NCBI RefSeq assembly: GCF_013817345.1
Contig: NZ_JACDCW010000002.1
Coordinates: forward strand, 7,498 to 71,497
Direction of reading: 5' to 3'
Length of the DNA stretch: 64,000 nt
DNA from: Methylibium sp.
GTDB taxonomy: Bacteria; Pseudomonadota; Gammaproteobacteria; Burkholderiales; Burkholderiaceae_C
The notes beneath the pieces were generated by a model that worked only from the letters and a program-made list of their open reading frames with translations, made no database searches and was not told where the DNA came from. This document shows positions 4,460-64,000 of the stretch, piece by piece. Each line of letters starts with the position of its first letter. Position 1 is the first letter of the stretch. The position numbers and the translations under genes are program-made.

Positions 4460-5979
4460 GATGAACAGGAAACCTCCAGGGTTTGCGCCCAGTCGGGCGG
4501 GAAGTCGGCATCGGCCGCGTGCTCGGGCTGTTCGTCGAAGGGGTGCTGCAGAACTTCCAGCAGCCGCGCCGTCTCGCCAAAGTCACCGCCTTGGGCCGCA
4601 CGAATCGCGTTTTCGCACAGGTGATTGCGCAGCACGAACTTCGGGTTGACGCGGTTCATGCGCTCGGCGCGTTCGGCGTCGATGCTGGCTTCGGCCCTGA
4701 GGCGAATGGCATAGCGCACGGCCCATGCGTCGAAGGCGGCGCGGTCGAGGAAGAGATCACGCACGGGGCTCGGGTCGGCCTCGGTGTAATCGGCGAGCCG
4801 GCGCCAGGCAATGGTGAAGTCGGTGCGCTCGGCAGCGAGCAGCTCGAGCCAGCCGTCGATCAGCGCCGGGTCGCCATCGTCCACCGTGGCGAAGCCGAGC
4901 TTGGCGCGCATGCGCGATTGCAGGGTTTCGGCAAAACCGCTGCGGTAGGGCTCGATGGCTTCGAGTGCCAGCTCTCCGGTGGCTTCGCTGACCTCTTCGC
5001 CGTTCGCGATCAGCGGCAGCAGGGCCTGCGCCAGCGCGTGCAGGTTCCACAAGGCGACGCCCGGCTGGCGCGCATAGGCGTAGCGGCCCTGATGGTCGGA
5101 GTGGTTGCAGACGTGGCCCGGGTCGAAGCCGTCGAGAAAACCGAAGGGCCCGTAGTCGATGGTCAGGCCGAGCAGCGACATGTTGTCGGTGTTCATCACG
5201 CCGTGGCAAAAGCCGACGGCCTGCCAATCGGCGATGAGCGTCGCAGTGCGGCGCGCCACCGCCTCGAGCAGAGCGGCATAGGCGTTGGGCGTATCGACAC
5301 ATTCAGGGTAGTAGCGTTCGATCGCGTAGTCGGCCAGTGTGCGCAAGGAAGCCGGTTGGTCGTGATGAGCGAAATGCTCGAAGTGACCGAAGCGCAGGAA
5401 GCTCGGCGCCACTCGCATCACCACCGCCGCGGTCTCGATCGCTTCTCGCCGCACCGGCAACTTTGATCCGACGACGGCCAGCGCCCGGGTGGTGGGAATG
5501 CCGAGGTGGTGCATCGCCTCCGAACACAGGAACTCGCGAATCGACGAGCGCAGCACGGCCCGGCCATCGCCCATACGGGAGTAGGGCGTCATGCCGCTGC
5601 CCTTGAGCTGCAGCTCCATCGGGCCGCGGGGCGTATCGATCTCGCCGAGCAGCAGCGCACGGCCATCGCCCAGCTGCCCCGCCCACACGCCGAACTGATG
5701 GCCGCTGTAGACGGTGGCCAGCGGCTCGGCGCCTTGCCAGGGCGTTGCTCCGGCCAGCACCTGCAGCGCGCGCCAGTCGGGGCGCTCCGCCCAGTCCGGA
5801 GGCCAACCGAGGCTGGCGGCCAGGTCGTCGCTGCGCGCCACCCAATGCGGCTCGGGCACGGCCTGCGCCGGCAGGAGTGTGTAGAACGCCGGGCCGAGCC
5901 GCGCGTAGCGGTTGAGCCAGCGCAGCGGCGGCGCGGCCACGTCTTCTTGCAGATCGAGCGGGGCGTGCAGTGCTGTCAT
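4456..5979 (-). CDS. selO: Protein adenylyltransferase SelO (YdiU)
   Basis: [40 protein letters not shown] and [10 protein letters not shown] motifs; C-terminal CSS. Confidence 0.95.
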
Positions 5980-6093
5980 GCAAGGCAGTCTATCGATGCG
6001 CCCCGGCCCGTTCGACCGCTAGGGCTAACCCGCAGCCGACTCCTTGGGGGCTCCTATGATCCGCGATCGCTTTCATTGCCGGAGACACGAACC

Positions 6094-7740
6094 ATGGCAC
6101 GCCTGATGGGCCAGATGATGCAGATGCCGCTGCTGATCTCTTCGGTGATCGTGCATGCCGCGTGCCACCACGGCGACACCGAAATCGTCTCCAAGCGGGT
6201 CGAGGGCGACCTGCACCGGACCACCTATGCCGAGTGCGAACTGCGCTCGAGAAAGCTCGCTCAGGCCTTCGCGCGGCTCGGCTGCACCGACAGCGACCGC
6301 ATCGGCACCCTGGCCTGGAACGGCTACCGGCACCTGGAGATCTACTACGCCAGCTCGGGCTCCGGACTCGTGTGCCACACCATCAATCCGCGGCTTTTCC
6401 CGGAGCAGATCGCGTGGATCGCGAACGACGCCGAAGACCGCGTGCTGTGCTTCGATCTCACCTTCTTGCCGCTGGTGGAAAAGCTCGCACCTTCGCTGCC
6501 GCACATCAAGCACTACATCGCGATGACCGGTCGTGCCCACATGCCGGCGCAGACCGGCATTCCGAACCTGCTGTGCTACGAGGAACTGGTCGAAGCCGAG
6601 AACGGCGACTACGCCTGGCCCGAGTTCGACGAGAACACCGCCTCGAGCCTCTGCTACACCTCCGGCACCACCGGCCATCCGAAGGGTGCCGTCTACAGCC
6701 ACCGCTCGAGCATCCTGCACGCCTATGCCGTCTCGCTGCCCGACAGCATGGGCAACTCGGCGACCGACACCATCTTGCCGGTCGTGCCGATGTTTCACGT
6801 CAACGCCTGGGGGCTGCCGTACGCCGCGCCGCTGGTCGGCTGCCGGCTGGTCTTTCCCGGCCCGCACATGGACGGCAAATCGCTGTACGAGTTGTTCGAG
6901 AGCGAGCAGGTCACTTTCAGCGCCGGCGTGCCGACCGTGTGGCTCGGCCTGCTGGCTTACGTGAAACAGAACGGCCTGAAGTTCAGCAGCTTCAAGCGCA
7001 CGGTGATCGGCGGCTCGGCGTGCCCGCCGGCCATGCTGCGCACGCTGGAAGACGACTTCGGCGTCAGCGTGATCCACGCCTGGGGCATGACCGAAATGTC
7101 GCCGGTGGGCACGCTGGCCCGGCTCAAGGCCAAGCATGCCGGGCAGCCGGTGGCCGAGCAGCGCCGCCTGCTGCAAAGCCAGGGCCGCGTGGTTTATGGC
7201 GTGGACATGGCGTTGATCGGCGACGACGGCAGCACCCGGCCCTGGGACGGCAAGACCTCGGGCGACCTCGTCGTGCGGGGGCCGTGGGTGATCGACCGCT
7301 ACTTCAAGCAGGACGCCTCGCCACTCGTGCAGGCCGACGGACAAGCCTGGTTTCCGACCGGCGATGTGGCGGCGATCGACGCAGACGGCTACATGCACAT
7401 CACCGACCGCAGCAAGGACGTCATCAAGTCCGGCGGCGAATGGATCAGCTCGATCGAGTTGGAGAATATTGCGATGGCGCACCCGGCCGTTCACGAGGCT
7501 GCCGTGATCGCCGCGGCACATGCCAAGTGGGACGAGCGGCCGCTGCTGGTGGTGATCAGGAAGCCCGGCGCCGAGGTGACGCGCGAGGAACTGCTCGCCC
7601 ATTACGAAGGCCGCATCGCCAAGTGGCAGATTCCCGACGACGTGGTCTTCGTGACCGAAATTGCACATACGGCTACCGGCAAGATACAGAAGCTCAAGCT
7701 GCGCGAGCAATTCATGGATCATGTTCTGCGAGGGGCCTGA
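6094..7740 (+). CDS. Long-chain acyl-CoA / 3-(methylthio)propionyl-CoA ligase-type AMP-binding enzyme
   Basis: [14 protein letters not shown]-binding motif, [27 protein letters not shown] and TGKIQK; N-terminus [13 protein letters not shown] is typical of the DmdB-like group. Confidence 0.9.
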
Positions 7741-7883
7741 CGGCCTCGCGCGAGAACCGCGAGAACCGTGTCCGGTCGGCGACAGGTGCATGTCGGGATG
7801 TCCCTCAACCGGTGCGTGAACTTGAGACTTACGCTCGTACGGTGGACGAATCAGCACGGCCGACGGCCGCCAAGGAGGCAGCG

Positions 7884-9146
7884 ATGCAATTCAGGAAGCG
7901 CTTGTTCGGTCTGGTGGTCGGCGCGGGCCTCGCCCTGAATGCCGGCGCGGCGTTTGCGCAGAAGGGCGAGACGGTCAAGCTGGCCTTCATCGACCCGCTG
8001 TCGGGCCTGATGGCGTCGGTGGGCCAGAACCAGGTGCGCAGCTTCCAGTTCTTTGCCGACAAGTTCAACAACGACGCCATGCTCAATCCGGCCGGCGTGA
8101 AGTTCGAGGTCATTGCCTTCGACAACAAGCTGAGCCCGACCGAGAGCCTGACGGCGCTGAAGGCCGCCATCGACCAGGGCGTGCGCTACATCACCCAGGG
8201 TGACGGCTCCGCAGTGGCGGCGGCGCTGATCGATGCGGTCGGCAAGCACAACGATCGCAACCCGGGCAAGGAGATCGTCTACCTCAACCACTCGGCGGTC
8301 GACCCCGACTTCACCAACAGCAAGTGCAGCTACTGGCACTTCCGCTTCGACGCCGACACGTCCATGAAGATGGAGGCCATGACCACCTTCATCAAGGACC
8401 TGCCCGACGTCAAGAAGGTCTACCTGCTCAACCAGAACTACTCGCACGGTCACCAGGTTGCCAAGTTCGCCAAGGAGATCCTCGGGCGCAAGCGCCCCGA
8501 CATCCAGATCGTCGGCGAAGACCTGCACCAGCTCGCCCAGGTGCGCGACTTCTCGCCTTACATCGCCAAGATCAGGGCCAGCGGCGCCGACACCATCGTG
8601 ACCGGCAACTGGGGCTCCGACCTCACGCTACTGATGAAAGCGGCCAACGAGGGCGGCTACAACGGCAAGTTCTTCACCTTCTACACGGGCGTCTCCGGCA
8701 CGCCCACGGCGATCGGCAAATCTTTCGAGGGCAAGATATTCCAGGTCTCGTACAACCACTACAACATGGGCGGGCAGATGGGCGAGTGGCAGGCCGAGTA
8801 CAAGAAGAAGTTCAACGACGATTTCTACACCGGCTCGGTGATCCACATCTTCAACGCGCTGTCGCAGTCGATCGCCAAGGCGAAATCCACCGATCCCGTC
8901 AAGGTGGCCGCAGCGCTGGAGGGCCTAAGGTTCAAGAGCTTCAACGGCGACGTCGAGATGCGCCGGGCCGATCACCAACTGCAGCAGACGCTCTACATGA
9001 CAACCTGGCAAAAAGCCTCGGCCGAGTTTCCCTACAGCCCCGAAAACACGGGCATGACGCTCGCACCGGTAAAGACATTCGAGCCGTACGTGTCGAGCAC
9101 GCCGACGAGCTGCCGGATGAAGCGCCCTTCGTCGCGGCCGGCGTGA
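7884..9146 (+). CDS. LivJ/K-like (type I PBP) ABC transporter substrate-binding protein
   Basis: RBS AAGGAGG; signal peptide; IDPLSG, DNKLSP, YWHFRFDA and DTIVTGNWG; heads a liv-type operon. Confidence 0.88.
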   Translation: MQFRKRLFGLVVGAGLALNAGAAFAQKGETVKLAFIDPLSGLMASVGQNQVRSFQFFADKFNNDAMLNPAGVKFEVIAFDNKLSPTESLTALKAAIDQGVRYITQGDGSAVAAALIDAVGKHNDRNPGKEIVYLNHSAVDPDFTNSKCSYWHFRFDADTSMKMEAMTTFIKDLPDVKKVYLLNQNYSHGHQVAKFAKEILGRKRPDIQIVGEDLHQLAQVRDFSPYIAKIRASGADTIVTGNWGSDLTLLMKAANEGGYNGKFFTFYTGVSGTPTAIGKSFEGKIFQVSYNHYNMGGQMGEWQAEYKKKFNDDFYTGSVIHIFNALSQSIAKAKSTDPVKVAAALEGLRFKSFNGDVEMRRADHQLQQTLYMTTWQKASAEFPYSPENTGMTLAPVKTFEPYVSSTPTSCRMKRPSSRPA

Positions 9147-28000: not shown

Positions 28001-28152
28001 GCCTGGCTGCGACGGTTCATGCGTCGTGGGTTGCGCGAAGCACGTGGAGCAACTGAGATGACACCGATCCGCGTTCGCACTTTCGCTGTACCCCGGCGAC
28101 CCCCCATGCCGGTGTTGCGACATGCGCAACGCCCTGCGGCAAAGGCGCTTCG

Positions 28153-28674
28153 ATGAGCGCGTCGCCCCAACCCGGCCGCGCCGAGGACATCGAGCCCTTC
28201 TGGCTCGACTACCAGCGCCAGTGCGGTATTAAGGTCGAAGGCTTCGCGGCCAGCGCCCTCGGCCACACACGGCCGCTCGCCGACGAACTGGCCGATCTGG
28301 TGGCCCGCGGCATCAAGCGCGCCCATGCCACGCTGCACCGCGACTTCCAGAAGGACCTCGAGCCCCTGCCGCAACCGGGCGACCACCTCGTGGTGCTCGA
28401 CGGCGCCGGCCGGCCGCGCGCCATCGTGCGCAACACCCACGTCGAGCTGCGCCACTTCCACGACATCGACGACCGTTTCGCCTTCGAGGCCGGCGAGGGC
28501 GACCTGAGCCTGCGCTGGTGGCTCACCGCCCACCGGCAGGACTTCGCCGAACGCGGCGAGCGCGAAGGCTTCGAGGCGAGCGAGAGCTTGGAGCTGGTGC
28601 TCGAGCATTTCGAGATCGTGTGGCCCCAGCCGGTGACAGCCGCGCCTGCGCAAGAACTGCGCGACGCAGGGTGA
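28153..28674 (+). CDS. ASCH domain protein
   Basis: ADELADLVARGIKRA (GxK), PQPGDHLVVLDG.GRPRAIV, FAFEAGEGDLSL.WW..H. Confidence 0.88.
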   Translation: MSASPQPGRAEDIEPFWLDYQRQCGIKVEGFAASALGHTRPLADELADLVARGIKRAHATLHRDFQKDLEPLPQPGDHLVVLDGAGRPRAIVRNTHVELRHFHDIDDRFAFEAGEGDLSLRWWLTAHRQDFAERGEREGFEASESLELVLEHFEIVWPQPVTAAPAQELRDAG

Positions 28675-28676
28675 GC

Positions 28677-30047
28677 ATGGCAGCGCCTGCCGGCGACGCT
28701 GGGGGCGCGTCGGCGTCGGCGTCATCCGCAACTGTGAGCGGCGCATCGGCGCCGACCGAATGCCACCGGATCGACGGCGACACCCCGGCCGCGGCCAAGG
28801 TGGCTGTCATTGGCGGCGGGCCGGCCGGGCTGATGGCGGCAGAGGTGCTGGCCGCCGGCGGGGCGCGCGTCGATCTGTACGACGCCATGCCCTCGGTCGG
28901 CCGCAAGTTTTTGCTGGCCGGCAAGGGCGGCCTGAACCTCACGCACGGCGAGCCGCTGAAAGACTTTTGCGCGAGATACGGCCCGCGCACTGAGGAGGTC
29001 GGCGCTTGGCTCGAGGTGCTGCCGCCGGCCGCGGTGCGCGACTGGGCCGAAGGGCTTGGCGTCAGCACCTTTGTCGGCAGCTCGGGCCGCGTGTTTCCGA
29101 CCGACCTCAAGGCCGCGCCGCTGTTGCGCGCCTGGCTGCACCGCCTGCGTACGGCCGGCGTCGGTTTTCACAGTCGGCATCGCTGGCAGGGGTGGGCGGA
29201 AGACGGCGCACTGCGTTTCGCGACGCCGCAGGGCGAGCGCGCCGCGAAGGCCGACGCGGTGGTGCTGGCGCTGGGCGGCGCGAGCTGGCCGCAGCTCGGT
29301 TCGGACGGCGCCTGGACCGCGCCGCTGGCGGCCCGCGGCGTGGAGACGGCGCCGCTGCTGCCCTCGAACTGCGGTTTCGACGTGGGCCATGCCGGCCAGC
29401 CGATCGGCTGGAGCGAGCATTTCCGCGAGCGCTTCGCCGGTGCGCCGATCAAGCCGGTGGTGCTGGCCTTCACCGACCGCCACGGCGCGCAATTCCGGCG
29501 CCAGGGCGAGTTCGTCGTCACGGCCACCGGCATCGAAGGCAGCCTGGTCTACGCGGCGTCGAGCGCACTGCGCGATGAAATCGCGGCAGAAGGCGCCGCG
29601 ACGATCCACCTCGACCTCCTTCCCGACCGCAGCGCCGAGTTCGTCGCCGCGGAAGTCGGGCGTCCGCGCGGGCCGCGCACGCTGGCCACGCAACTGAGGA
29701 GCCGGCTCGGCATCACCGGCGTCAAGGCAGCGCTGCTGTATGAAGTGCTCGGCAAGGAAGCGATGCACGACCCGGTGCAGCTTGCGGCGGCATGCAAGGC
29801 CCTGCCGCTGCGGCTGGTGTCGCCCCGGCCCATCGCCGAAGCGATCAGCACTGTCGGCGGCGTGCGCCTGCAATCGCTGGATGAACGGCTGATGCTGCGC
29901 GCCGTGCCGAGCGTGTTCTGCGCCGGCGAAATGCTCGACTGGGAAGCGCCCACGGGCGGCTACCTCCTCACGGCCAGCATGGCCAGCGGGCGGGTGGCGG
30001 GGCAGGGCGCGCTCGACTGGCTGGCCGGCAGGGCAACCGTTCCCTGA
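28677..30047 (+). CDS. HI0933/BaiN-like flavoprotein (TIGR03862-type)
   Basis: GGGPAGLMAA, GRKFLLAGKGGLNLTH, GSSGRVFP, EAISTVGGV and GEMLDWEAPTGGYLL. Confidence 0.9.
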   Translation: MAAPAGDAGGASASASSATVSGASAPTECHRIDGDTPAAAKVAVIGGGPAGLMAAEVLAAGGARVDLYDAMPSVGRKFLLAGKGGLNLTHGEPLKDFCARYGPRTEEVGAWLEVLPPAAVRDWAEGLGVSTFVGSSGRVFPTDLKAAPLLRAWLHRLRTAGVGFHSRHRWQGWAEDGALRFATPQGERAAKADAVVLALGGASWPQLGSDGAWTAPLAARGVETAPLLPSNCGFDVGHAGQPIGWSEHFRERFAGAPIKPVVLAFTDRHGAQFRRQGEFVVTATGIEGSLVYAASSALRDEIAAEGAATIHLDLLPDRSAEFVAAEVGRPRGPRTLATQLRSRLGITGVKAALLYEVLGKEAMHDPVQLAAACKALPLRLVSPRPIAEAISTVGGVRLQSLDERLMLRAVPSVFCAGEMLDWEAPTGGYLLTASMASGRVAGQGALDWLAGRATVP

Positions 30048-30110
30048 TCTTGCCGGCACCCTGTGTTAGAACCCCCGGCATCTGCAGAAACTCCCCTTGC
30101 ACAGCCTCTC

Positions 30111-31106
30111 ATGAATGCCGCCGTACAGCCTGTTCACGTGGTCCGCTCCGAGGCGCGCCACCTCCACCCCGCGTGCGAACGTTGGAGCGTCGAAGCCACG
30201 CTGGCCTTGTTCGACCTGCCCTTCAACGACCTGATGTTCCGTGCCCAGCAAGTGCACCGCGAGCACTTCGACGCCAACGCAGTGCAGCGCTCGACCCTGC
30301 TGTCCATCAAGACCGGCGGCTGCCCGGAGGATTGCGCCTACTGCCCGCAGTCGGTGCATTACGACACCGGCGTCGAAGCCGACAAGCTGATGGAGCCGAG
30401 CGCCGTGCGCGCCGCCGCCGAAGCCGCGGTGGCGGCCGGCGCTACGCGCTTTTGCATGGGCGCGGCCTGGCGCGAACCGAAAGACCGCGACATCGAGAAA
30501 GTGGCCGCACTGGTGCGCGAGGTCAAGTCGCTGGGTCTCGAGGCCTGCTGCACGCTCGGCATGCTGAGCCGGCCCCAGGCCGCGGCGCTCAAGGAAGCCG
30601 GCGTCGATTACTACAACCACAACCTCGACACCTCGCCCGAGGCCTACGGCCGCATCATCGGCACGCGCGTGTACGAGGAGCGGCTGCAGACCCTGGCCCA
30701 TGTGCGCGAGGCCGGCATGAACGTGTGCTGCGGCGGCATCGTCGGCATGGGCGAGAGCCGGCGCGAGCGGGCCGGCCTGGTGGCGCAGCTTGCCAACCTC
30801 GATCCGCACCCGGAGTCGGTGCCGATCAACGAGCTCGTGCAGGTGGAGGGCACGCCGCTGGCCGGCACCGACAAGCTCGATCCCTTCGAGTTCGTGCGCA
30901 CGATCGCGGTGGCGCGCATCACCATGCCGACGGCCTACGTGCGGCTGTCCGCAGGCCGCCAGCAAATGGGCGACGCCATCCAGGCGCTGTGCTTTCTGGC
31001 CGGCGCCAACTCCATCTTCTACGGCGAGAAGCTGCTCACGACCGGCAACCCGGACGTGGCACGCGACGAAGCGCTGTTCGAGACGCTGGGTCTGCACGCC
31101 GTCTGA
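30111..31106 (+). CDS. bioB: Biotin synthase (radical SAM)
   Basis: [10 protein letters not shown] (CxxxCxxC), [28 protein letters not shown] and [12 protein letters not shown]. An alternative GTG start exists at 30063. Confidence 0.97.
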
Positions 31107-31164: not shown

Positions 31165-31315
31165 GACCGGGCGCCGGCGGGCCGCTACGCTGCGTCGTTG
31201 CTCGCTGCATCGCTGTCGTTGCATCGCGTCAGCGCCGGGCGGTGACCCGGTCAGCGGACGCTTCGCCTCTGCGGCCCGTGCGGCAAGCTGGTTTCCACGA
31301 CAACACGACCGCTCC

Positions 31316-32890
31316 ATGCAAAGAAGACACTTCGTCGGCGGCCTGGCCGCCTCGGCAGCCCTACAAACCCTGTTCGGCCATGCGGCCGGCGCGGCCACGC
31401 TGGAGACCCTCGGCAAGCCGCAGCCTTTCGACTATGCGGGGCTCAAGGGCCGGGCGCGCGAGCTGGCGGCCCGGGCTTACCAAGCGCCGCCCACCACACT
31501 GCCTCCGGCCATCGACTCGCTCGACTGGGACCAGCACCAGGCGATCCGCTTTCGCCCCGAGCATGCGTTGTGGCGCGACGACCGGCTGCGCCTGCAAGCA
31601 CAGTTCTTCCACCTGGGGCTCTTTTTCAAATCCCCGGTCCGCATTCACGAGCTCGTCGACGGCCAGGCCCGCGAGCTCGCCTACGACCCGTCGATGTTCG
31701 ATTACGGCAAGAGCGGCGTGCAGGGCAGCCAGTTGCCGAAGGACCTGGGTTTCGCCGGCTTCCGGCTGAACTTCCACACCGATCCGGAACGCGACATCTG
31801 TGCCTTCCTCGGCGCGAGCTACTTCCGCGCGGTGGGCGGCCAATGGCAGTACGGCCTGTCAGCACGCGGCCTGGCGATCGATTCCGGCCTGCCGCGGCCC
31901 GAGGAGTTTCCGAACTTCGTTTCGTTCTGGCTCGAAAAGCCCGCGCAGGGTGCCAGCAGCATCACCGTCTACGCGCTGCTCGATTCGCCGAGCATTGCCG
32001 GCGCTTACCGCTTCCTCATCACGCCCGGCGACACCCAGGTGATGGACATCGACGCGGCCCTGTACCCGCGCAAGACGATCGAACGGCTAGGCATCGCGCC
32101 GCTCACCAGCATGTTCCAGACCGGCGAAAACGACCGCCGCATGGCCAACGACTGGCGCCCGGAAATCCACGACAGCGACGGCCTGCAGATGTTCACCGGC
32201 GAAGGCGAGTGGATCTGGCGCCCGCTGAACAACCCCCGCACGCTGCGCTTCAACGCGTACAAGGATCTCAACCCGCGCGGCTTCGGCCTGATGCAGCGCG
32301 ACCGCGACTTCGACAACTACCAGGACGACGGCGTCTTCTACGAGAAGCGCCCGAGCCTGTGGGTGGAGCCGAAAGCCGGCTGGGAAGCCGGCTCGGTGCA
32401 GCTCATCGAGATTCCGACGGTGGACGAAACCTTCGACAACATCGTCGTGCTGTGGAACCCCGATCGCGCACCCCAGCCCGGCGAAGAATTGCTGTTCTCG
32501 TATCGCCTGCACTGGGGCGCCCAGCCGGCCGTGCCGCCGATGGCGCGCTGCCTGGCCACGCGTACGGGGTTGGGCGGCATCGTCGGCCAGGCCCGCAAGC
32601 ACTTCTCGTGGCGCTTCGCGGTCGACTTCGCCGGGGGCGACCTGGGCCTGCTCGGCCCGAAAGCCAAGGTCGAGGCGGTCGTCACCGCCTCGCGCGGCAA
32701 GATCGAGATCACCTCCGCGCGGCCCTTGCTCGCGATCAACGGCTGGCGCGCGATGTTCGACGTGGTGCCGCCCCCCGACGAGGAGCCCATCGATCTGCGC
32801 CTGTTCCTCAGCAGTGCCGGGCAGCCCATGAGCGAAACCTGGCTGTACCAGTACAACCCGCCGCCGCTGGCCGAACGCAATCTGGCCTAG
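31316..32890 (+). CDS. opgD: Periplasmic glucan biosynthesis protein D (OpgD/MdoD, Tat-exported)
   Basis: Twin-arginine leader MQRRHFVGGL; FLGASYFRA, YGLSARGLAID, LGIAPLTSMF, RPEIHDSDGL and ETWLYQ. Confidence 0.88.
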   Translation: MQRRHFVGGLAASAALQTLFGHAAGAATLETLGKPQPFDYAGLKGRARELAARAYQAPPTTLPPAIDSLDWDQHQAIRFRPEHALWRDDRLRLQAQFFHLGLFFKSPVRIHELVDGQARELAYDPSMFDYGKSGVQGSQLPKDLGFAGFRLNFHTDPERDICAFLGASYFRAVGGQWQYGLSARGLAIDSGLPRPEEFPNFVSFWLEKPAQGASSITVYALLDSPSIAGAYRFLITPGDTQVMDIDAALYPRKTIERLGIAPLTSMFQTGENDRRMANDWRPEIHDSDGLQMFTGEGEWIWRPLNNPRTLRFNAYKDLNPRGFGLMQRDRDFDNYQDDGVFYEKRPSLWVEPKAGWEAGSVQLIEIPTVDETFDNIVVLWNPDRAPQPGEELLFSYRLHWGAQPAVPPMARCLATRTGLGGIVGQARKHFSWRFAVDFAGGDLGLLGPKAKVEAVVTASRGKIEITSARPLLAINGWRAMFDVVPPPDEEPIDLRLFLSSAGQPMSETWLYQYNPPPLAERNLA

Positions 32891-59282: not shown

Positions 59283-60320
59283 ATGAGCACCCTGCAGGTC
59301 TGGCTCCTCGTGCTCGGAGCGCTGGTGGTGGCCGGCGTGGTTGCGCACGGCGTGTGGAGCGCGCGGCGCAGCGCAGTGCGGCAGGTTGCGGCTGAGCCCG
59401 GCGAGGCGGCCGCCTCGCGCGAACCCTCGCTCGACCGGCCGGCAGAGCCGGCGGACCTGGCCGCGACTCGCATCGAGCCCACGCTGGCCCGCCGCGGCGG
59501 CCCCAGGCTCGATGCGCTGATCGATGCGATCGCCGCGATCACCGTTGAGAACCCAGTCGCCGGCGAAACCGCGGCCGTGCACCTGCCGCCGGCACGCCGG
59601 GCCGGCACCAAGCCGCTGCTCGTCGAAGGCCTCAACGCGGAGAGCGGCGAATGGGAGCTGCCGATGCCGGGCCAGCGCTACGGCGAGTTCCAGGCCGGCG
59701 TGCAATTGGCCAACCGCAGCGGCGCGCTCAACGAGATCGAGTATTCCGAGTTCGTGCAGAAGGTGCAGTCCTTCGCCGAGCCGCTGGCCGCCTTGCCCGA
59801 CTTCCCGGACATGCTCGACGTCGTGGCGCGGGCACGCGAGCTCGACGCCTTTGCCGGCCAGCACGACGCGCAGTTGGCCTTGCGCCTGGTTTCCCGCGGT
59901 CCGGCCTGGTCGCCCGGTTATGTGCAGCAGCACGCCGCCCGCCATGGTTTCGTGACCGGCGCTCTGCCGGGCCGGCTGGTGCTGCCCGGACTCGACGAAG
60001 GTGCGCCGCCCGTACTGACACTCAACTTCGACGCCCAGGCCGCACTGGCCGACGATCCGAGCCAGGCCGCACTGCGCGAGCTGACTCTGGCTTTCGACGT
60101 GCCGCAGACCGGCAGCGCGGCCGCACCGTTTGCCGCCTGGTGCGCGGCCGGCGAGGCCTTGTCCACCGAGCTCGATGCCGCCCTGTACGACGACGGCGGC
60201 CAGCCTTTGCATCCGACTTCCTTCGCCGCCATCGGCCAGGAGCTCGAGCGTCTGTATGCGCGCCTGGCCGAGCGCGACCTGGCAGCAGGATCGGCAGCGG
60301 CAAGACGGCTGTTCAGTTAG
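59283..60320 (+). CDS. zipA: Cell division protein ZipA-like (FtsZ-binding C-terminal domain)
   Basis: N-terminal TM; LANRSGALNEIEYSEFVQKV and L.L.FDVPQT; directly after smc as in related bacteria. Confidence 0.88.
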   Translation: MSTLQVWLLVLGALVVAGVVAHGVWSARRSAVRQVAAEPGEAAASREPSLDRPAEPADLAATRIEPTLARRGGPRLDALIDAIAAITVENPVAGETAAVHLPPARRAGTKPLLVEGLNAESGEWELPMPGQRYGEFQAGVQLANRSGALNEIEYSEFVQKVQSFAEPLAALPDFPDMLDVVARARELDAFAGQHDAQLALRLVSRGPAWSPGYVQQHAARHGFVTGALPGRLVLPGLDEGAPPVLTLNFDAQAALADDPSQAALRELTLAFDVPQTGSAAAPFAAWCAAGEALSTELDAALYDDGGQPLHPTSFAAIGQELERLYARLAERDLAAGSAAARRLFS

Positions 60321-60532
60321 CCGTCGAGCCCCTCACGACGCCATCTCCACAAGCCGCGTCGCGAGACGTCGGGCGGTGACTTCGGGCTCGCCTGCAAATG
60401 AATGCAAGACGAACCGGTCGCAACGGAAGGGATTTCCGGTCGAGCGACCGTTGCCGCTATTTTTGCCAAGCTTGTGTCGATGTGTTTCCACGCGGCATCG
60501 GCCGTTCACAGGGAATTTGCTCCAGTGCCTGC

Positions 60533-60547
60533 CGGCATAGCGATTGC
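60533..60547 (+). promoter_or_regulatory. Sigma54 (-24/-12) promoter candidate for the PQQ dehydrogenase operon
   Basis: CGGCATAGCGATTGC (GG-N10-GC with TTGC), 57 bp upstream of the ATG. The inverted repeat GCAACGG...CCGTTGC ~80-110 bp further upstream could be an enhancer. Confidence 0.6.
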
Positions 60548-60603
60548 CCGACCGAATCCGCAGTTGATCTTCCAGCGCACCTCGCGCGAAAAGGAGATTC
60601 GAC

Positions 60604-62382
60604 ATGGACATTTCGGCTTCGCTTCGGGCGGTGTCGCTCGCGCTTCTGTTCGGCAGCGCCCTTCACCCGCCGGCCGCGGCACAAGCCGCGGGCGCGGAAT
60701 GGACCACACCGGCCGGCACGCTCGAAGGCACGCGCTTCAGTTCCTTGGCGCAGATTCACAGCGGCAATGTCGGGCAACTCGAAGAGGAGTTCCGCTTTCG
60801 CACCGGCGTTATCGCCGGGCATGAGGGCACGCCGCTCGTGGTCGGCTCGACGATGTACGTCGTCAGCCCGTTCCCGAACAAGCTGTTCGCGCTCGACCTG
60901 GCCGACCGCGGCCGGCTGCGCTGGGTCTTCGACCCGCGCGCCGATCCGTTCGCGCAAGACAAGGCGTGTTGCGACATCGTCAATCGCGGCGCGGTGCATG
61001 CGAACGGCAAGATCATCTACAACGTGCTCGACAACACCACAGTCGCGGTCGATGCAAGGACCGGCCGCGAGGTCTGGCGCACCAAGCTCGGCGACCCGGC
61101 CACCGGCCAGACGATGACGATGGCCCCGCTGGTCGTGGGCGACAAGGTGTTGGTCGGCAACAGCGGCGGCGAGCTCGGCATCCGTGGCTTCATCGCCGCT
61201 CTCAACCTCAACACCGGCATCGAGGTCTGGCGCGCTTTCAGCACCGGCCCTGATGTCGATGTGCTCATCGGTGCGGGCTTCAATCCGTTCTACGCCAAGG
61301 ACCGTGGCGCCGATCTCGGCGCGGCCACCTGGCCATCGGAATTCATGTGGCAGCACGGCGGCAGCACGGTCTGGGGCTTTGTCAGTTACGACCCGCAACT
61401 CAACCTGATCTACTACGGCACCGCCAACCCCGGTGTCTGGAACCCCGACTTGCGGCCCGGCGACAACAAGTGGTCGACCACGCTGTTCGCGCGCAATCCC
61501 GACACCGGCCAGGCGGCCTGGGCCTACCAGATCACGCCGCACGACGCTTGGGACTTCGACGGCGTCAACGAGAACATCGTCGTGAACCTGCCGTTCGGCG
61601 ACACGACGCGCCAACTGCTGGTGCGCTTCGACCGCAACGGCTTTGCCTACACGATGGACCGCAAGACCGGCGAGGTGCTGGTGGCCGAAAAGTTTGTGTT
61701 CGTCAACTGGGCCGAACGCATCGACCTCGGCACCGGCGCGCCCGTCGAGAACCCGGCCAAGCGCCCCCGCGAGGGCGTCAACGTGCGCGACATCTGCCCG
61801 GCCGGGGTGGGCGGCAAGGATCAGCAGCCGGCCGCGTTCTCGCCGCGCACCAACCTGTTCTACGTGCCGACCAACAACCTGTGCATGGACTACGAGGCGC
61901 TGAAGGTCAACTTCATCGAAGGCACGCCGTTCGTGGGCGCCAGCGTCAGGATGAAAGCCGGCCCGGACGGCCTCGGCCATCGCGGTGAGTTCATGGCTTG
62001 GGACGCGACCAGCGGGCGCAAGGTGTGGGGCATCGCCGAGCGCTTTCCGGTCTGGAGCGGCGTGCTCGCGACGGCCGGCGACGTGGTCTTCTACGGCACG
62101 CTCGACCGCCGGTTCAAGGCGGTCCACGCGGTCACCGGGCAGGTGCTGCTCGACCGCCGACTCGAGTCCGGCATCGTCGGCCATCCGATGACCTTCCTCG
62201 GCCCCGACGGCAAGCAGCGCGTCGCGATCTACTCCGGCCCGGGCGGCGTGGCCGGCGCGATCGTGCCGGCCGAGCTGTCGCCCGACGATCCGTTCGCCGG
62301 GCTCGGCATCGTCGGCGCGATGGCCGATCTGCCGCGCTTCACGCCAGCCGGCGGCGCGGTGCATGTGTTCAAGCTGCCATGA
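60604..62382 (+). CDS. PQQ-dependent methanol/ethanol-family dehydrogenase, lanthanide-type (XoxF-like)
   Basis: Signal peptide; vicinal CC (ACCDIVNRG), GGELG, GTANPGVWN, RPGDNKW, HDAWDFDGVNE and Trp-docking repeats. Confidence 0.9.
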   Translation: MDISASLRAVSLALLFGSALHPPAAAQAAGAEWTTPAGTLEGTRFSSLAQIHSGNVGQLEEEFRFRTGVIAGHEGTPLVVGSTMYVVSPFPNKLFALDLADRGRLRWVFDPRADPFAQDKACCDIVNRGAVHANGKIIYNVLDNTTVAVDARTGREVWRTKLGDPATGQTMTMAPLVVGDKVLVGNSGGELGIRGFIAALNLNTGIEVWRAFSTGPDVDVLIGAGFNPFYAKDRGADLGAATWPSEFMWQHGGSTVWGFVSYDPQLNLIYYGTANPGVWNPDLRPGDNKWSTTLFARNPDTGQAAWAYQITPHDAWDFDGVNENIVVNLPFGDTTRQLLVRFDRNGFAYTMDRKTGEVLVAEKFVFVNWAERIDLGTGAPVENPAKRPREGVNVRDICPAGVGGKDQQPAAFSPRTNLFYVPTNNLCMDYEALKVNFIEGTPFVGASVRMKAGPDGLGHRGEFMAWDATSGRKVWGIAERFPVWSGVLATAGDVVFYGTLDRRFKAVHAVTGQVLLDRRLESGIVGHPMTFLGPDGKQRVAIYSGPGGVAGAIVPAELSPDDPFAGLGIVGAMADLPRFTPAGGAVHVFKLP

Positions 62383-63233
62383 ACCGCGCGAGCGTCAACG
62401 AGGCCCGATGGCGGGTTGCGGCGGCGTTCGCGCTGCTCGCAGCGGTCGCTGCCGCGGTCGCCGCTGCCGAGCCGGCGCGCGAATTGCGCGTCTGCGCGCA
62501 GCCCAACAACCTGCCGTTCTCGAACCAGCGGCTCGAGGGTTTCGAGAACAAGCTGGCCCAGTTGGTGGCTGACGAGTTGAGCGCGACGCTGCGCTACACC
62601 TGGCGGCCGCAGCGCCGTGGCTTCGTGCGCCGCACGCTGAACGCCGGCGCCTGCGACCTCGTGATGGGCGTGCCGAGCGGCTTCGAGCCGGTGTTGGCGA
62701 GCGTGCCGTACTACCGTTCGACCTACGCCTTCGTTTACGCGAAGGATCGTCAGCCGGGTTTGAGTTCGTTCGACGACCCGGCGTTGCGCGGCCTGCGCAT
62801 CGGCCTGCATGCGGTCGGCGACGACGGCTTCAGCACGCCGCCGGCGCACGCACTGGCACGGCGTGGCCTCCTCAACAACATCGTCGGCTTCGCGATGTGG
62901 GACACCGACACGGTCGACAGCCCGGCCGGCCGCATCGTCGATGCGGTCGCTTCCGGCGATATCGACCTGGCGATCGTCTGGGGTCCGTTCGCCGCCTACT
63001 TCGCCGGCCGGCACCCGCAACGACTCGAGGTGCGGCCGGTGTCGCCACCGCCGGACATGAGCGCGTGGCCGTTCGCCTACGACATCGCGATCGGCGTGCG
63101 ACAGGGCGACGCTGCGCTGAAGCGCGAACTCGACGGCGTGCTCGAGCGGCGTCGCGACCAGGTCCGAGAAATCCTCGAGCAATATGGCGTGCCGCTGATC
63201 GGGCCGACCGCCGAGACCCGCGAAGGAGACTGA
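62379..63233 (+). CDS. MxaJ/XoxJ-like periplasmic binding protein
   Basis: LRVCAQPNNLPFSN...GFEN, QRRGFVR.TL..G.CDL, YYRSTYAFV and D.A.VWGP; ATGA overlap with the dehydrogenase stop. Confidence 0.88.
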   Translation: MNRASVNEARWRVAAAFALLAAVAAAVAAAEPARELRVCAQPNNLPFSNQRLEGFENKLAQLVADELSATLRYTWRPQRRGFVRRTLNAGACDLVMGVPSGFEPVLASVPYYRSTYAFVYAKDRQPGLSSFDDPALRGLRIGLHAVGDDGFSTPPAHALARRGLLNNIVGFAMWDTDTVDSPAGRIVDAVASGDIDLAIVWGPFAAYFAGRHPQRLEVRPVSPPPDMSAWPFAYDIAIGVRQGDAALKRELDGVLERRRDQVREILEQYGVPLIGPTAETREGD

Positions 63234-63234
63234 A

Positions 63235-63681
63235 ATGCAAGCCAACCCGACGAGAAGGATCGCCTGCGCATTCGTGTTGTCGCTGTGCGGCTTGGCCACG
63301 ATGCTGGCCGACGCGGGCGGCCCGGGGTCGTCGTCGGGGCCGAGCGTCGGCGCGGTGTCGAGGCACGGCGGCGGCGTGCCGGATATTGACGAAGACGACG
63401 GCGACCGCATCAACGGTCGCCGGCTGTTCCTCAGCAACAACTGCTACATCTGCCACGGCGGGCGTGGCGGCGGCGGCATGTGCCCGAGCCTGCGCGAGGA
63501 TCGCCCGCACGGCGACGATGCCGTGCGCGCGATCCTCAACGGCACGCGCAACGGCATGCCGCCGTTCCGCGACCGCCTGAGCGCGCAGGACATTGCCGAC
63601 CTGCTGGCCTACATCGATTCCTTGCGCCGCGACGAAGAACCGACCTTCACGCATTGGTGGGAGCCGGTGCCGACGCGCTGA
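63235..63681 (+). CDS. Periplasmic monoheme cytochrome c (XoxG/MxaG-like partner)
   Basis: Signal peptide; CYICH heme motif; distal Met in NGMPPF. Confidence 0.88.
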   Translation: MQANPTRRIACAFVLSLCGLATMLADAGGPGSSSGPSVGAVSRHGGGVPDIDEDDGDRINGRRLFLSNNCYICHGGRGGGGMCPSLREDRPHGDDAVRAILNGTRNGMPPFRDRLSAQDIADLLAYIDSLRRDEEPTFTHWWEPVPTR

Positions 63682-64000
63682 CGCTGCGACGCGGTGCTTG
63701 GCCAATACGCTTCGCAGCGACTTGCCGGGCCGATGGCGTAACTCATGACCGGCGCCTTGCCGGGCCGGCTGGGGCTGCCCAGCGGCGAGGAGGGCGCACC
63801 GCCCTGCTGACGCTGGCTTTCGCCGTGCTGGAGCGCCGGCCGCTGTGCTTCCTCGGGGATCGGCTGCGTCGGCTTTGCGCAACCTGCGACCCCATCGGCC
63901 GATCACGGCTGCTCGCGCCTCGCGGTGCCTGCTGCCCTCGTGATGGTGGAAACGCACGGCAATCAACCTCACGATAGCCGGCGCGGCTCACGGGCGACGG

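Follow-up and report, generated by a model that had tools for sequence, protein, structure and literature searches.

A putative XoxF3-like, lanthanide-type methanol dehydrogenase cassette, probably laterally acquired, between a zipA-like gene and ligA in a Methylibium sp.

Three coupled genes for a dehydrogenase, a J protein and a cytochrome c

The stretch of DNA analyzed here (the window) is 64,000 nt long and corresponds to positions 7498–71497 of contig C95 of a Methylibium sp. genome. Coordinates are window positions unless another contig or locus is named. On the plus strand it carries three consecutive genes: a xoxF-like gene (60604–62382) encoding a pyrroloquinoline quinone (PQQ) dehydrogenase of 592 amino acids with an N-terminal signal peptide, a xoxJ-like gene (62379–63233) encoding a periplasmic accessory protein of 284 amino acids with a solute-binding fold, and a gene for a mono-haem class I cytochrome c of 148 amino acids (63235–63681). 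A GGAG ribosome-binding site (60593–60596, plus strand) precedes the xoxF-like gene, the xoxF stop and the xoxJ ATG overlap in the sequence ATGA, and the cytochrome c start lies one base past the xoxJ stop with another GGAG in front of it. The three genes are translationally coupled and share one orientation over 60604–63681. No terminator-like structure beyond chance level was seen after the cytochrome c gene.

A preliminary description of this DNA had proposed a XoxF-type PQQ dehydrogenase followed by a J protein and a cytochrome c, and both profile searches and matches to PDB structures agree. The xoxF-like protein scored 601.7 bits against TIGR03075 (cut-off 480). Its top PDB matches are all methanol dehydrogenases, the lanthanide-dependent enzyme of SolV (4MAE, XoxF2 type) being first with 655 bits, an E value of 9e-196 and 53% identity. 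It is followed by XoxF1 of M. extorquens AM1 (6OC5, XoxF5 type; 589 bits), the M. buryatense XoxF (6DAM; 554 bits) and the Nd-containing XoxF1-type enzyme 7O6Z (540 bits). Ca-dependent MxaF structures gave 455–509 bits, and the ethanol-type enzymes including PedH about 276–313 bits, roughly half of the top matches. In the alignment the identities were 48% to XoxF1, 47–50% to XoxF5 and 43–44% to MxaF. An AlphaFold2 model built from 34 homologues had a mean predicted local distance difference test score of 83.6 and superimposed on 4MAE and 6FKW with template modeling (TM) scores of 0.90–0.93 and a root mean square deviation of 2.1 Å; the TM score to ethanol-type enzymes was about 0.8. The protein is clearly a PQQ dehydrogenase with an eight-bladed fold, belonging to the XoxF/MxaF (methanol dehydrogenase) branch. 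It had been called divergent in the preliminary description, which is an overstatement given 53% identity to the SolV enzyme and many relatives at 60–90%.

To place the active-site residues we used 4MAE as reference, after checking that our residue index reproduced the published Glu172, Asn256, Asp299 and Asp301. The PQQ and metal residues C122-C123, E190, N275, D317, R344 and W257 align to Cys104/105, Glu172, Asn256, Asp299, Arg326 and Trp238, respectively. On the plus strand the vicinal Cys pair is encoded at 60967–60972, Glu190 at 61171–61173 and Asn275 at 61426–61428, which bears out the vicinal Cys, Glu and Asn ligands proposed earlier. The codons for D317-F318-D319 (61552–61560, plus strand) hold the catalytic Asp and the lanthanide-specific Asp, aligning to Asp299 and Asp301 of the SolV XoxF, so the lanthanide-type D-x-D signature in the preliminary description was read correctly. 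The surrounding motif HDAWDFDGVNE is also present, but the coordinates given for it (61549–61569) span WDFDGVN alone; the full motif lies at 61540–61572. We likewise found PHDAWDFDGVNE in the xoxF-like protein, and the further motifs quoted earlier, GGSTVWGFVSYDP, CYICH (63442–63456) and GGGGMCPSL, are all there.

The xoxJ-like protein scored 289.9 bits against TIGR03871 (cut-off 212) and had the XoxJ structure 6ONP as its best PDB match (156.6 bits), followed by MxaJ; the second gene product is thus a XoxJ/MxaJ-type binding protein. The cytochrome matched PF13442 with 48.8 bits and has the haem motif C70-Y-I-C73-H74, with Met108 in NGMPPF as the probable axial haem ligand. We also considered cytochrome cL (MxaG/XoxG) for the third gene, as the gene order F-J-G in the preliminary description implied. 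This identity was ruled out by a score of 20.6 bits to the MoxG cytochrome cL model (TIGR03872), far under its cut-off of 147.8, and by PDB matches consisting of cbb3 subunit P and c6-type cytochromes, with no cytochrome cL structure among them. Thus, the tight trio of coupled genes stands, but its third member is not of the G/cL type.

Placement of the dehydrogenase among XoxF lineages

A search of 5.8 billion proteins listed at least 120 matches with 59–90% identity, nearly all of them from soil and sediment metagenomes; the few named ones among those listed came from metagenome-assembled genomes (MAGs) of Vicinamibacterales, Gemmatimonadaceae and Burkholderiales, and from Indioceanicola profundi. 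In species-representative genomes we confirmed 575 relatives of the xoxF-like protein. The best 80 of these 575 loci (50–72% identity) belong to Acidobacteriota, Gemmatimonadota, Ferrovum, Binatia and a few Proteobacteria. No Methylophilaceae occur among these best 80 loci, and membership of the XoxF4 group is therefore unlikely on sequence grounds. Plasmid-borne copies served as further anchors. The copy of Indioceanicola is 73% identical to the window protein, and those of Methylocella tundrae (p1), Sinorhizobium medicae WSM419 (pSMED03), Mesorhizobium, Azospirillum and Methylocystis are 53–57% identical. In the annotated records of the latter set, xoxF precedes a gene for a binding protein, then one for a cytochrome of the c type and then cytochrome oxidase genes, the arrangement published for XoxF3 clusters.

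A maximum-likelihood tree of 54 rows was rooted with three ethanol-type enzymes and anchored with five PDB sequences, the second xoxF copy of the host, one annotated XoxF5 and one MxaF. In this tree the xoxF-like protein falls within a clade of 22 rows with a support of 100/99, apart from the cox-linked XoxF3 group, from XoxF1 plus XoxF2 and from XoxF5 plus MxaF. Approximately unbiased (AU) tests rejected joining the clade to XoxF1/2 (p 0.0018) and to XoxF5/MxaF (p 8e-6); a single clade with the cox-linked XoxF3 group of Alphaproteobacteria and Acidobacteriota was not rejected (p 0.2). An exclusive common ancestry with XoxF1 and XoxF2 (7O6Z, 4MAE) is rejected by the first of these tests.

The lanthanide signature is a property of the whole clade: D-x-D is found in 22/22 members, and only the two MxaF rows have Ala in place of the second Asp. 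The WGF variant (for WGW) occurs in two of the 22 members and is a lineage quirk. Near the PQQ-stacking Trp the subclade has preferences of its own, with V256, and I, V or L at position 260 in place of Tyr. As side observations, one clade member that is 66% identical to the xoxF-like protein (P0085) is 967 amino acids long because of a fusion with an additional domain, PF19190, and a Longimicrobium contig (L010, 6001–9197) carries a tandem pair of xoxF genes whose products share 60% and 57% identity with the window protein.

Gene order and cytochrome type both point toward the XoxF3 systems. The order F-J-cytochrome is common to the window and to the XoxF3 operons of Methylocella tundrae, Sinorhizobium medicae, Mesorhizobium and Methylocystis. 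Using tblastn, we found a J gene and a window-type cytochrome directly downstream in the XoxF3 loci L087, L088, L090, L092, L023 and L029 and in clade members, and no window-type cytochrome downstream in XoxF5 loci. The window cytochrome is 32–40% identical to the cytochrome following xoxJ in XoxF3 operons and 51–69% identical to those of its own clade, which end in EPTFTHWWE(P/A/G); the window copy reads EPTFTHWWEP. Its extra Cys, already noted in the preliminary description, is present at position 83, but is not conserved: the position is Cys in four clade members and Gly in the rest. For this reason we dropped the idea of a second haem or a thioether variant and regard the residue as a lineage quirk. 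No cox/ctaG genes stand beside the cassette, where ligA and def are found instead, and none were seen near the clade members L006, L007, L086 and L099.

From the tree, the AU tests, the gene order and the cytochrome type we call the xoxF-like protein XoxF3-like, within a distinct cox-less subclade, which would make it a fairly ordinary addition to an already known group. The XoxF3 clade was reportedly defined by Keltjens et al. in 2014. Its gene clusters have been described by Voutsinos et al. (2024), with cox/ctaG linkage in many of them (PMC10875860), and carriers named in the literature include Azospirillum, Mesorhizobium and Methylosinus (PMC10875860; PMC7065363). XoxF3 carries the lanthanide Asp but, unlike XoxF1, 2, 4 and 5, which are biochemically confirmed, is without biochemical data (PMC10875860; bioRxiv 10.64898/2026.07.10.737718). 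That the enzyme belongs to an under-characterized clade, as suggested in the preliminary description, is in line with these reports.

The comparison with known systems can be summarized in three parts. Like the window, the XoxF3 systems have a lanthanide-signature XoxF with xoxJ behind it, then a class I cytochrome c belonging to one and the same family, and they share with the window subclade a spread over Acidobacteriota, Gemmatimonadota and Proteobacteria. Unlike them, the window subclade has no cox/ctaG, NRAMP or other accessory genes attached, its cytochrome is shorter and has the EPTFTHWWEP tail, and it forms a separate, strongly supported subclade with ~54–56% identity to the alphaproteobacterial plasmid copies. 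The SolV XoxF2 enzyme (4MAE, 6FKW) has metal and PQQ ligands identical to those of the window enzyme and is its best match in sequence and fold, but the tree separates the two, and the partners in the window are separate xoxJ and cytochrome genes. XoxF5 enzymes (6OC5, 6DAM) belong to the same family and have the same lanthanide Asp; their loci differ in having a cL-type or 4-Cys cytochrome and the order F-G-J.

The same features allow a more far-reaching interpretation, in which the subclade (Indioceanicola, Ferrovum, Acidobacteriota, Gemmatimonadota and Burkholderiales MAGs) would be a sixth XoxF lineage outside XoxF3, with its own co-evolved short EPTFTHWWEP cytochrome, a three-gene cassette passing between phyla, sigma-54 control in the window lineage and a metal or substrate preference unlike that of XoxF1/2/4/5. 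As a joint claim we consider this distinctly unlikely, and we retain the XoxF3-like assignment.

The cassette at the zipA-ligA gap and its host

Upstream of the cassette lie smc and a zipA-like gene, and downstream ligA and def. In two relatives, L104 and L105, smc, zipA and ligA are contiguous, with a spacer of 138 nt between zipA and ligA (3116–3253 in L104). Nucleotide homology of the window with L103 and L104 ends exactly at the stop of the zipA-like gene (60320) and restarts at 63743, 63821 and 64011. The homology breaks thus delimit an inserted cassette at 60321–~63742 (plus strand) that includes its own upstream region together with xoxF, xoxJ and the cytochrome c gene. Directly behind it, at 63743–63833 (plus strand), we found a degenerate, incomplete second copy of stretches from inside the zipA-like gene, visible as direct repeats: 59950–60011 and 63743–63804 are 81% identical, and 60080–60107 and 63806–63833 are 86% identical. 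The sequence following the duplicate (63835–63927) matches the spacer after zipA in L103. The duplicate has the look of a scar that recombination left when the cassette was inserted.

The distribution of the gene agrees with this. None of the 40 related genomes searched holds a window-type xoxF; at most they have XoxF5. Among same-genus genomes, 11 of 15 hold only a copy of 47–51% identity, corresponding to the XoxF5 of the host. The closest orthologues (90%, 87% and 77% identity) stand in unrelated genomic contexts, and other clade members have varied neighbors. Because of the homology breaks, the scar, the absence from 40 of 40 relatives and the varied contexts of orthologues, the xoxF-xoxJ-cytochrome c cassette is, as far as sequence comparison can tell, a lateral insertion between the zipA-like gene and ligA.

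Two observations concern the insertion site itself. The zipA-like gene (59283–60320) occupies the usual zipA position and scores about 20 bits each with the N-terminal and C-terminal ZipA models, below their cut-offs. Within the genus the zipA-ligA gap varies: it is empty in two relatives and filled in L103, where another insert (5532–8000) consists of a gene with a META domain, a small open reading frame and a gene of the choloylglycine hydrolase family.

A recent insertion could also be a silent or decaying passenger, little expressed or metal-independent and with no role in energy metabolism. The occurrence of the cassette in only one of 41 related genomes and the scar still remaining behind it would fit such a passenger, as would the trace-level expression of the XoxF3 of M. 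silvestris (PMC9291206). However, none of the three reading frames is broken, the genes are translationally coupled and have good ribosome-binding sites, and no catalytic residue is missing; the cassette also has the same GC content as the host and is intact across many lineages. We therefore find a passenger very unlikely.

The host genome comprises 4.14 Mb in 207 contigs with a GC content of 67%. The LigA encoded just downstream of the cassette shares 89% identity with one from Methylibium sp. and ~76% with its counterparts in Piscinibacter, Rhizobacter and Caldimonas, which marks the host as a Methylibium-like bacterium within the Burkholderiales. A canonical XoxF5 (943 bits to 6DAM) is encoded on contig C68, followed by a 4-Cys/cL-like cytochrome and xoxJ, and no MxaF-type gene was found in the genome. 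Neither this XoxF5 operon nor the lateral insertion featured in the preliminary description. As it stated, there are no pqq genes in the window, and there are none on the rest of its contig either; the genome search that it proposed located pqqA, B, C, D and E on contig C105 and a second pqqE on C48. The gene fae is present, which points to tetrahydromethanopterin-linked formaldehyde oxidation. Neither a RuBisCO large subunit nor a glutathione-dependent formaldehyde dehydrogenase was detected above cut-off in the genome.

Two of these loci adjoin genes for sigma-54 activators. On C105 (25321–34119) the pqqABCDE genes, with pqqA at ~31263–31343 and pqqE cut by the contig end, adjoin a GAF-PAS sigma-54 activator gene (28002–30140) and an aldehyde:ferredoxin-oxidoreductase-like gene. 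On C69 (5788–9146) fae adjoins a gene for an AcoR-like sigma-54 activator (7044–9146).

The resident XoxF5 raises the question of substrate, since the host operon already serves methanol and a second enzyme may differ in role. The window enzyme could be a lanthanide PQQ dehydrogenase with a physiological substrate other than methanol (ethanol, another primary alcohol, an aldehyde or formaldehyde), acting in a non-methylotrophic auxiliary route. The residue preferences of the subclade near the PQQ-stacking Trp (V256; I/V/L at 260) would allow for this, and the subclade has no assayed members (PMC10875860; bioRxiv 10.64898/2026.07.10.737718). On the other hand, methanol dehydrogenases are much closer to the protein than ethanol-type enzymes (490–655 versus ~300 bits; TM scores of 0.9 versus 0.8), its J partner is of the XoxJ/MxaJ type, and methylotrophs commonly have more than one XoxF copy in the genome (PMC12482762). 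On balance a substrate other than methanol seems rather unlikely. The preliminary description had expressed doubt over methanol; the sequence gives no argument against it, the best matches in sequence and in fold all being methanol dehydrogenases.

Candidate promoter and proposed role

A candidate sigma-54 -24/-12 element, CGGCAT-AGCGA-TTGCC, is located at 60533–60548 on the plus strand, 71 nt before the xoxF ATG and with GG and GC correctly spaced. It suggests that the cassette might be transcribed from this site under a resident enhancer-binding protein. The element matches 8/11 consensus positions. At this looseness, the genome-wide frequency predicts 0.26 chance sites in the 283-nt spacer, and the host genome has 110 sigma-54-like sites that score better (10 or 11). 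The exact core GGCA-N6-TTGC is rarer, with 0.009 occurrences expected in the spacer; in the whole window it was observed 8 times against 4.25 expected. The orthologue with 87% identity (L098) keeps the same core although four of five spacer bases are changed, and the orthologues with 90% and 77% identity (L097, L099) keep GG-N10-GC. This conservation is not specific to the motif, however, as the window and L098 show conservation throughout the proximal region. Partial conservation is confined to the four nearest orthologues, and the motif is absent upstream of the more distant clade members L006, L007, L008 and L086.

The genomic setting is similarly divided. The host has rpoN and at least seven sigma-54 activators, three of them GAF/AcoR-like, and no sigma-70-like site was found upstream of the xoxF-like gene. 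Against this, the cassette has no activator gene beside it, either here or on related contigs, and no convincing sigma-54 motif precedes the xoxF5, fae or pqqA genes of the host. The literature that mentions both xoxF and sigma-54 contained nothing on xoxF regulation. We regard transcription from 60533–60548 as possible, though with somewhat more doubt than confidence. Of the sigma-54 control put forward in the preliminary description, the GG/GC spacing and an rpoN gene in the genome are there, but with an 8/11 match and no adjacent activator it is a weak lead.

Taken together, we think it likely that the laterally acquired operon is a periplasmic, alcohol-oxidizing, XoxF3-like methanol dehydrogenase module of the lanthanide type that supplements the resident XoxF5. 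For its metal, substrate and electron path we infer the following. D319 would coordinate a lanthanide ion in the PQQ dehydrogenase, and the enzyme would most likely use PQQ and a light lanthanide to oxidize methanol, and probably also formaldehyde and further small primary alcohols. XoxJ probably aids maturation or activation of the enzyme, and electrons would probably pass to the class I cytochrome c and from there into the respiratory chain. The F-J-cytochrome cassette of the compact, cox-less XoxF3-like subclade would move between phyla, and in this Methylibium-like host it may supplement the XoxF5 system. Expression reports on canonical XoxF3 disagree: that of M. trichosporium OB3b shows strong induction by cerium (PMC12482762), that of M. 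silvestris hardly any expression (PMC9291206).

Several points weigh against this interpretation. The name XoxF3-like was reached through organism names, gene order and exclusion rather than through author-labeled XoxF3 or XoxF4 sequences, the groups compared in the AU tests were named after inspection of the tree, and XoxF3-like sequences look paraphyletic in the outgroup-rooted tree. The function of the enzymes in the window subclade is itself predicted from sequence. With regard to the metal, the XoxF3 of Methylocella silvestris showed no lanthanum response in addition to its trace expression (PMC9291206), and XoxF1 of Ca. Methylomirabilis oxyfera appeared to hold calcium in spite of its D-x-D (PMC9291206). 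A search of the host genome with a strict EF-hand motif, which may be too strict to show absence, detected no lanmodulin-type protein.

In most respects the cassette represents a gene of the expected kind in an organism of the expected kind. Among methanol dehydrogenase genes in soils and weathered rock, however, the XoxF3-like ones are reportedly the most abundant, and none of their products is known to have undergone purification or assay. A compact cassette free of oxidase genes, in a proteobacterial host with cultivated methylotrophs among its relatives, would lend itself well to the first biochemical test of the group, covering metal, substrate and acceptor. Its clean insertion site would also offer a concrete case of lanthanide-dependent methanol oxidation spreading by gene transfer.

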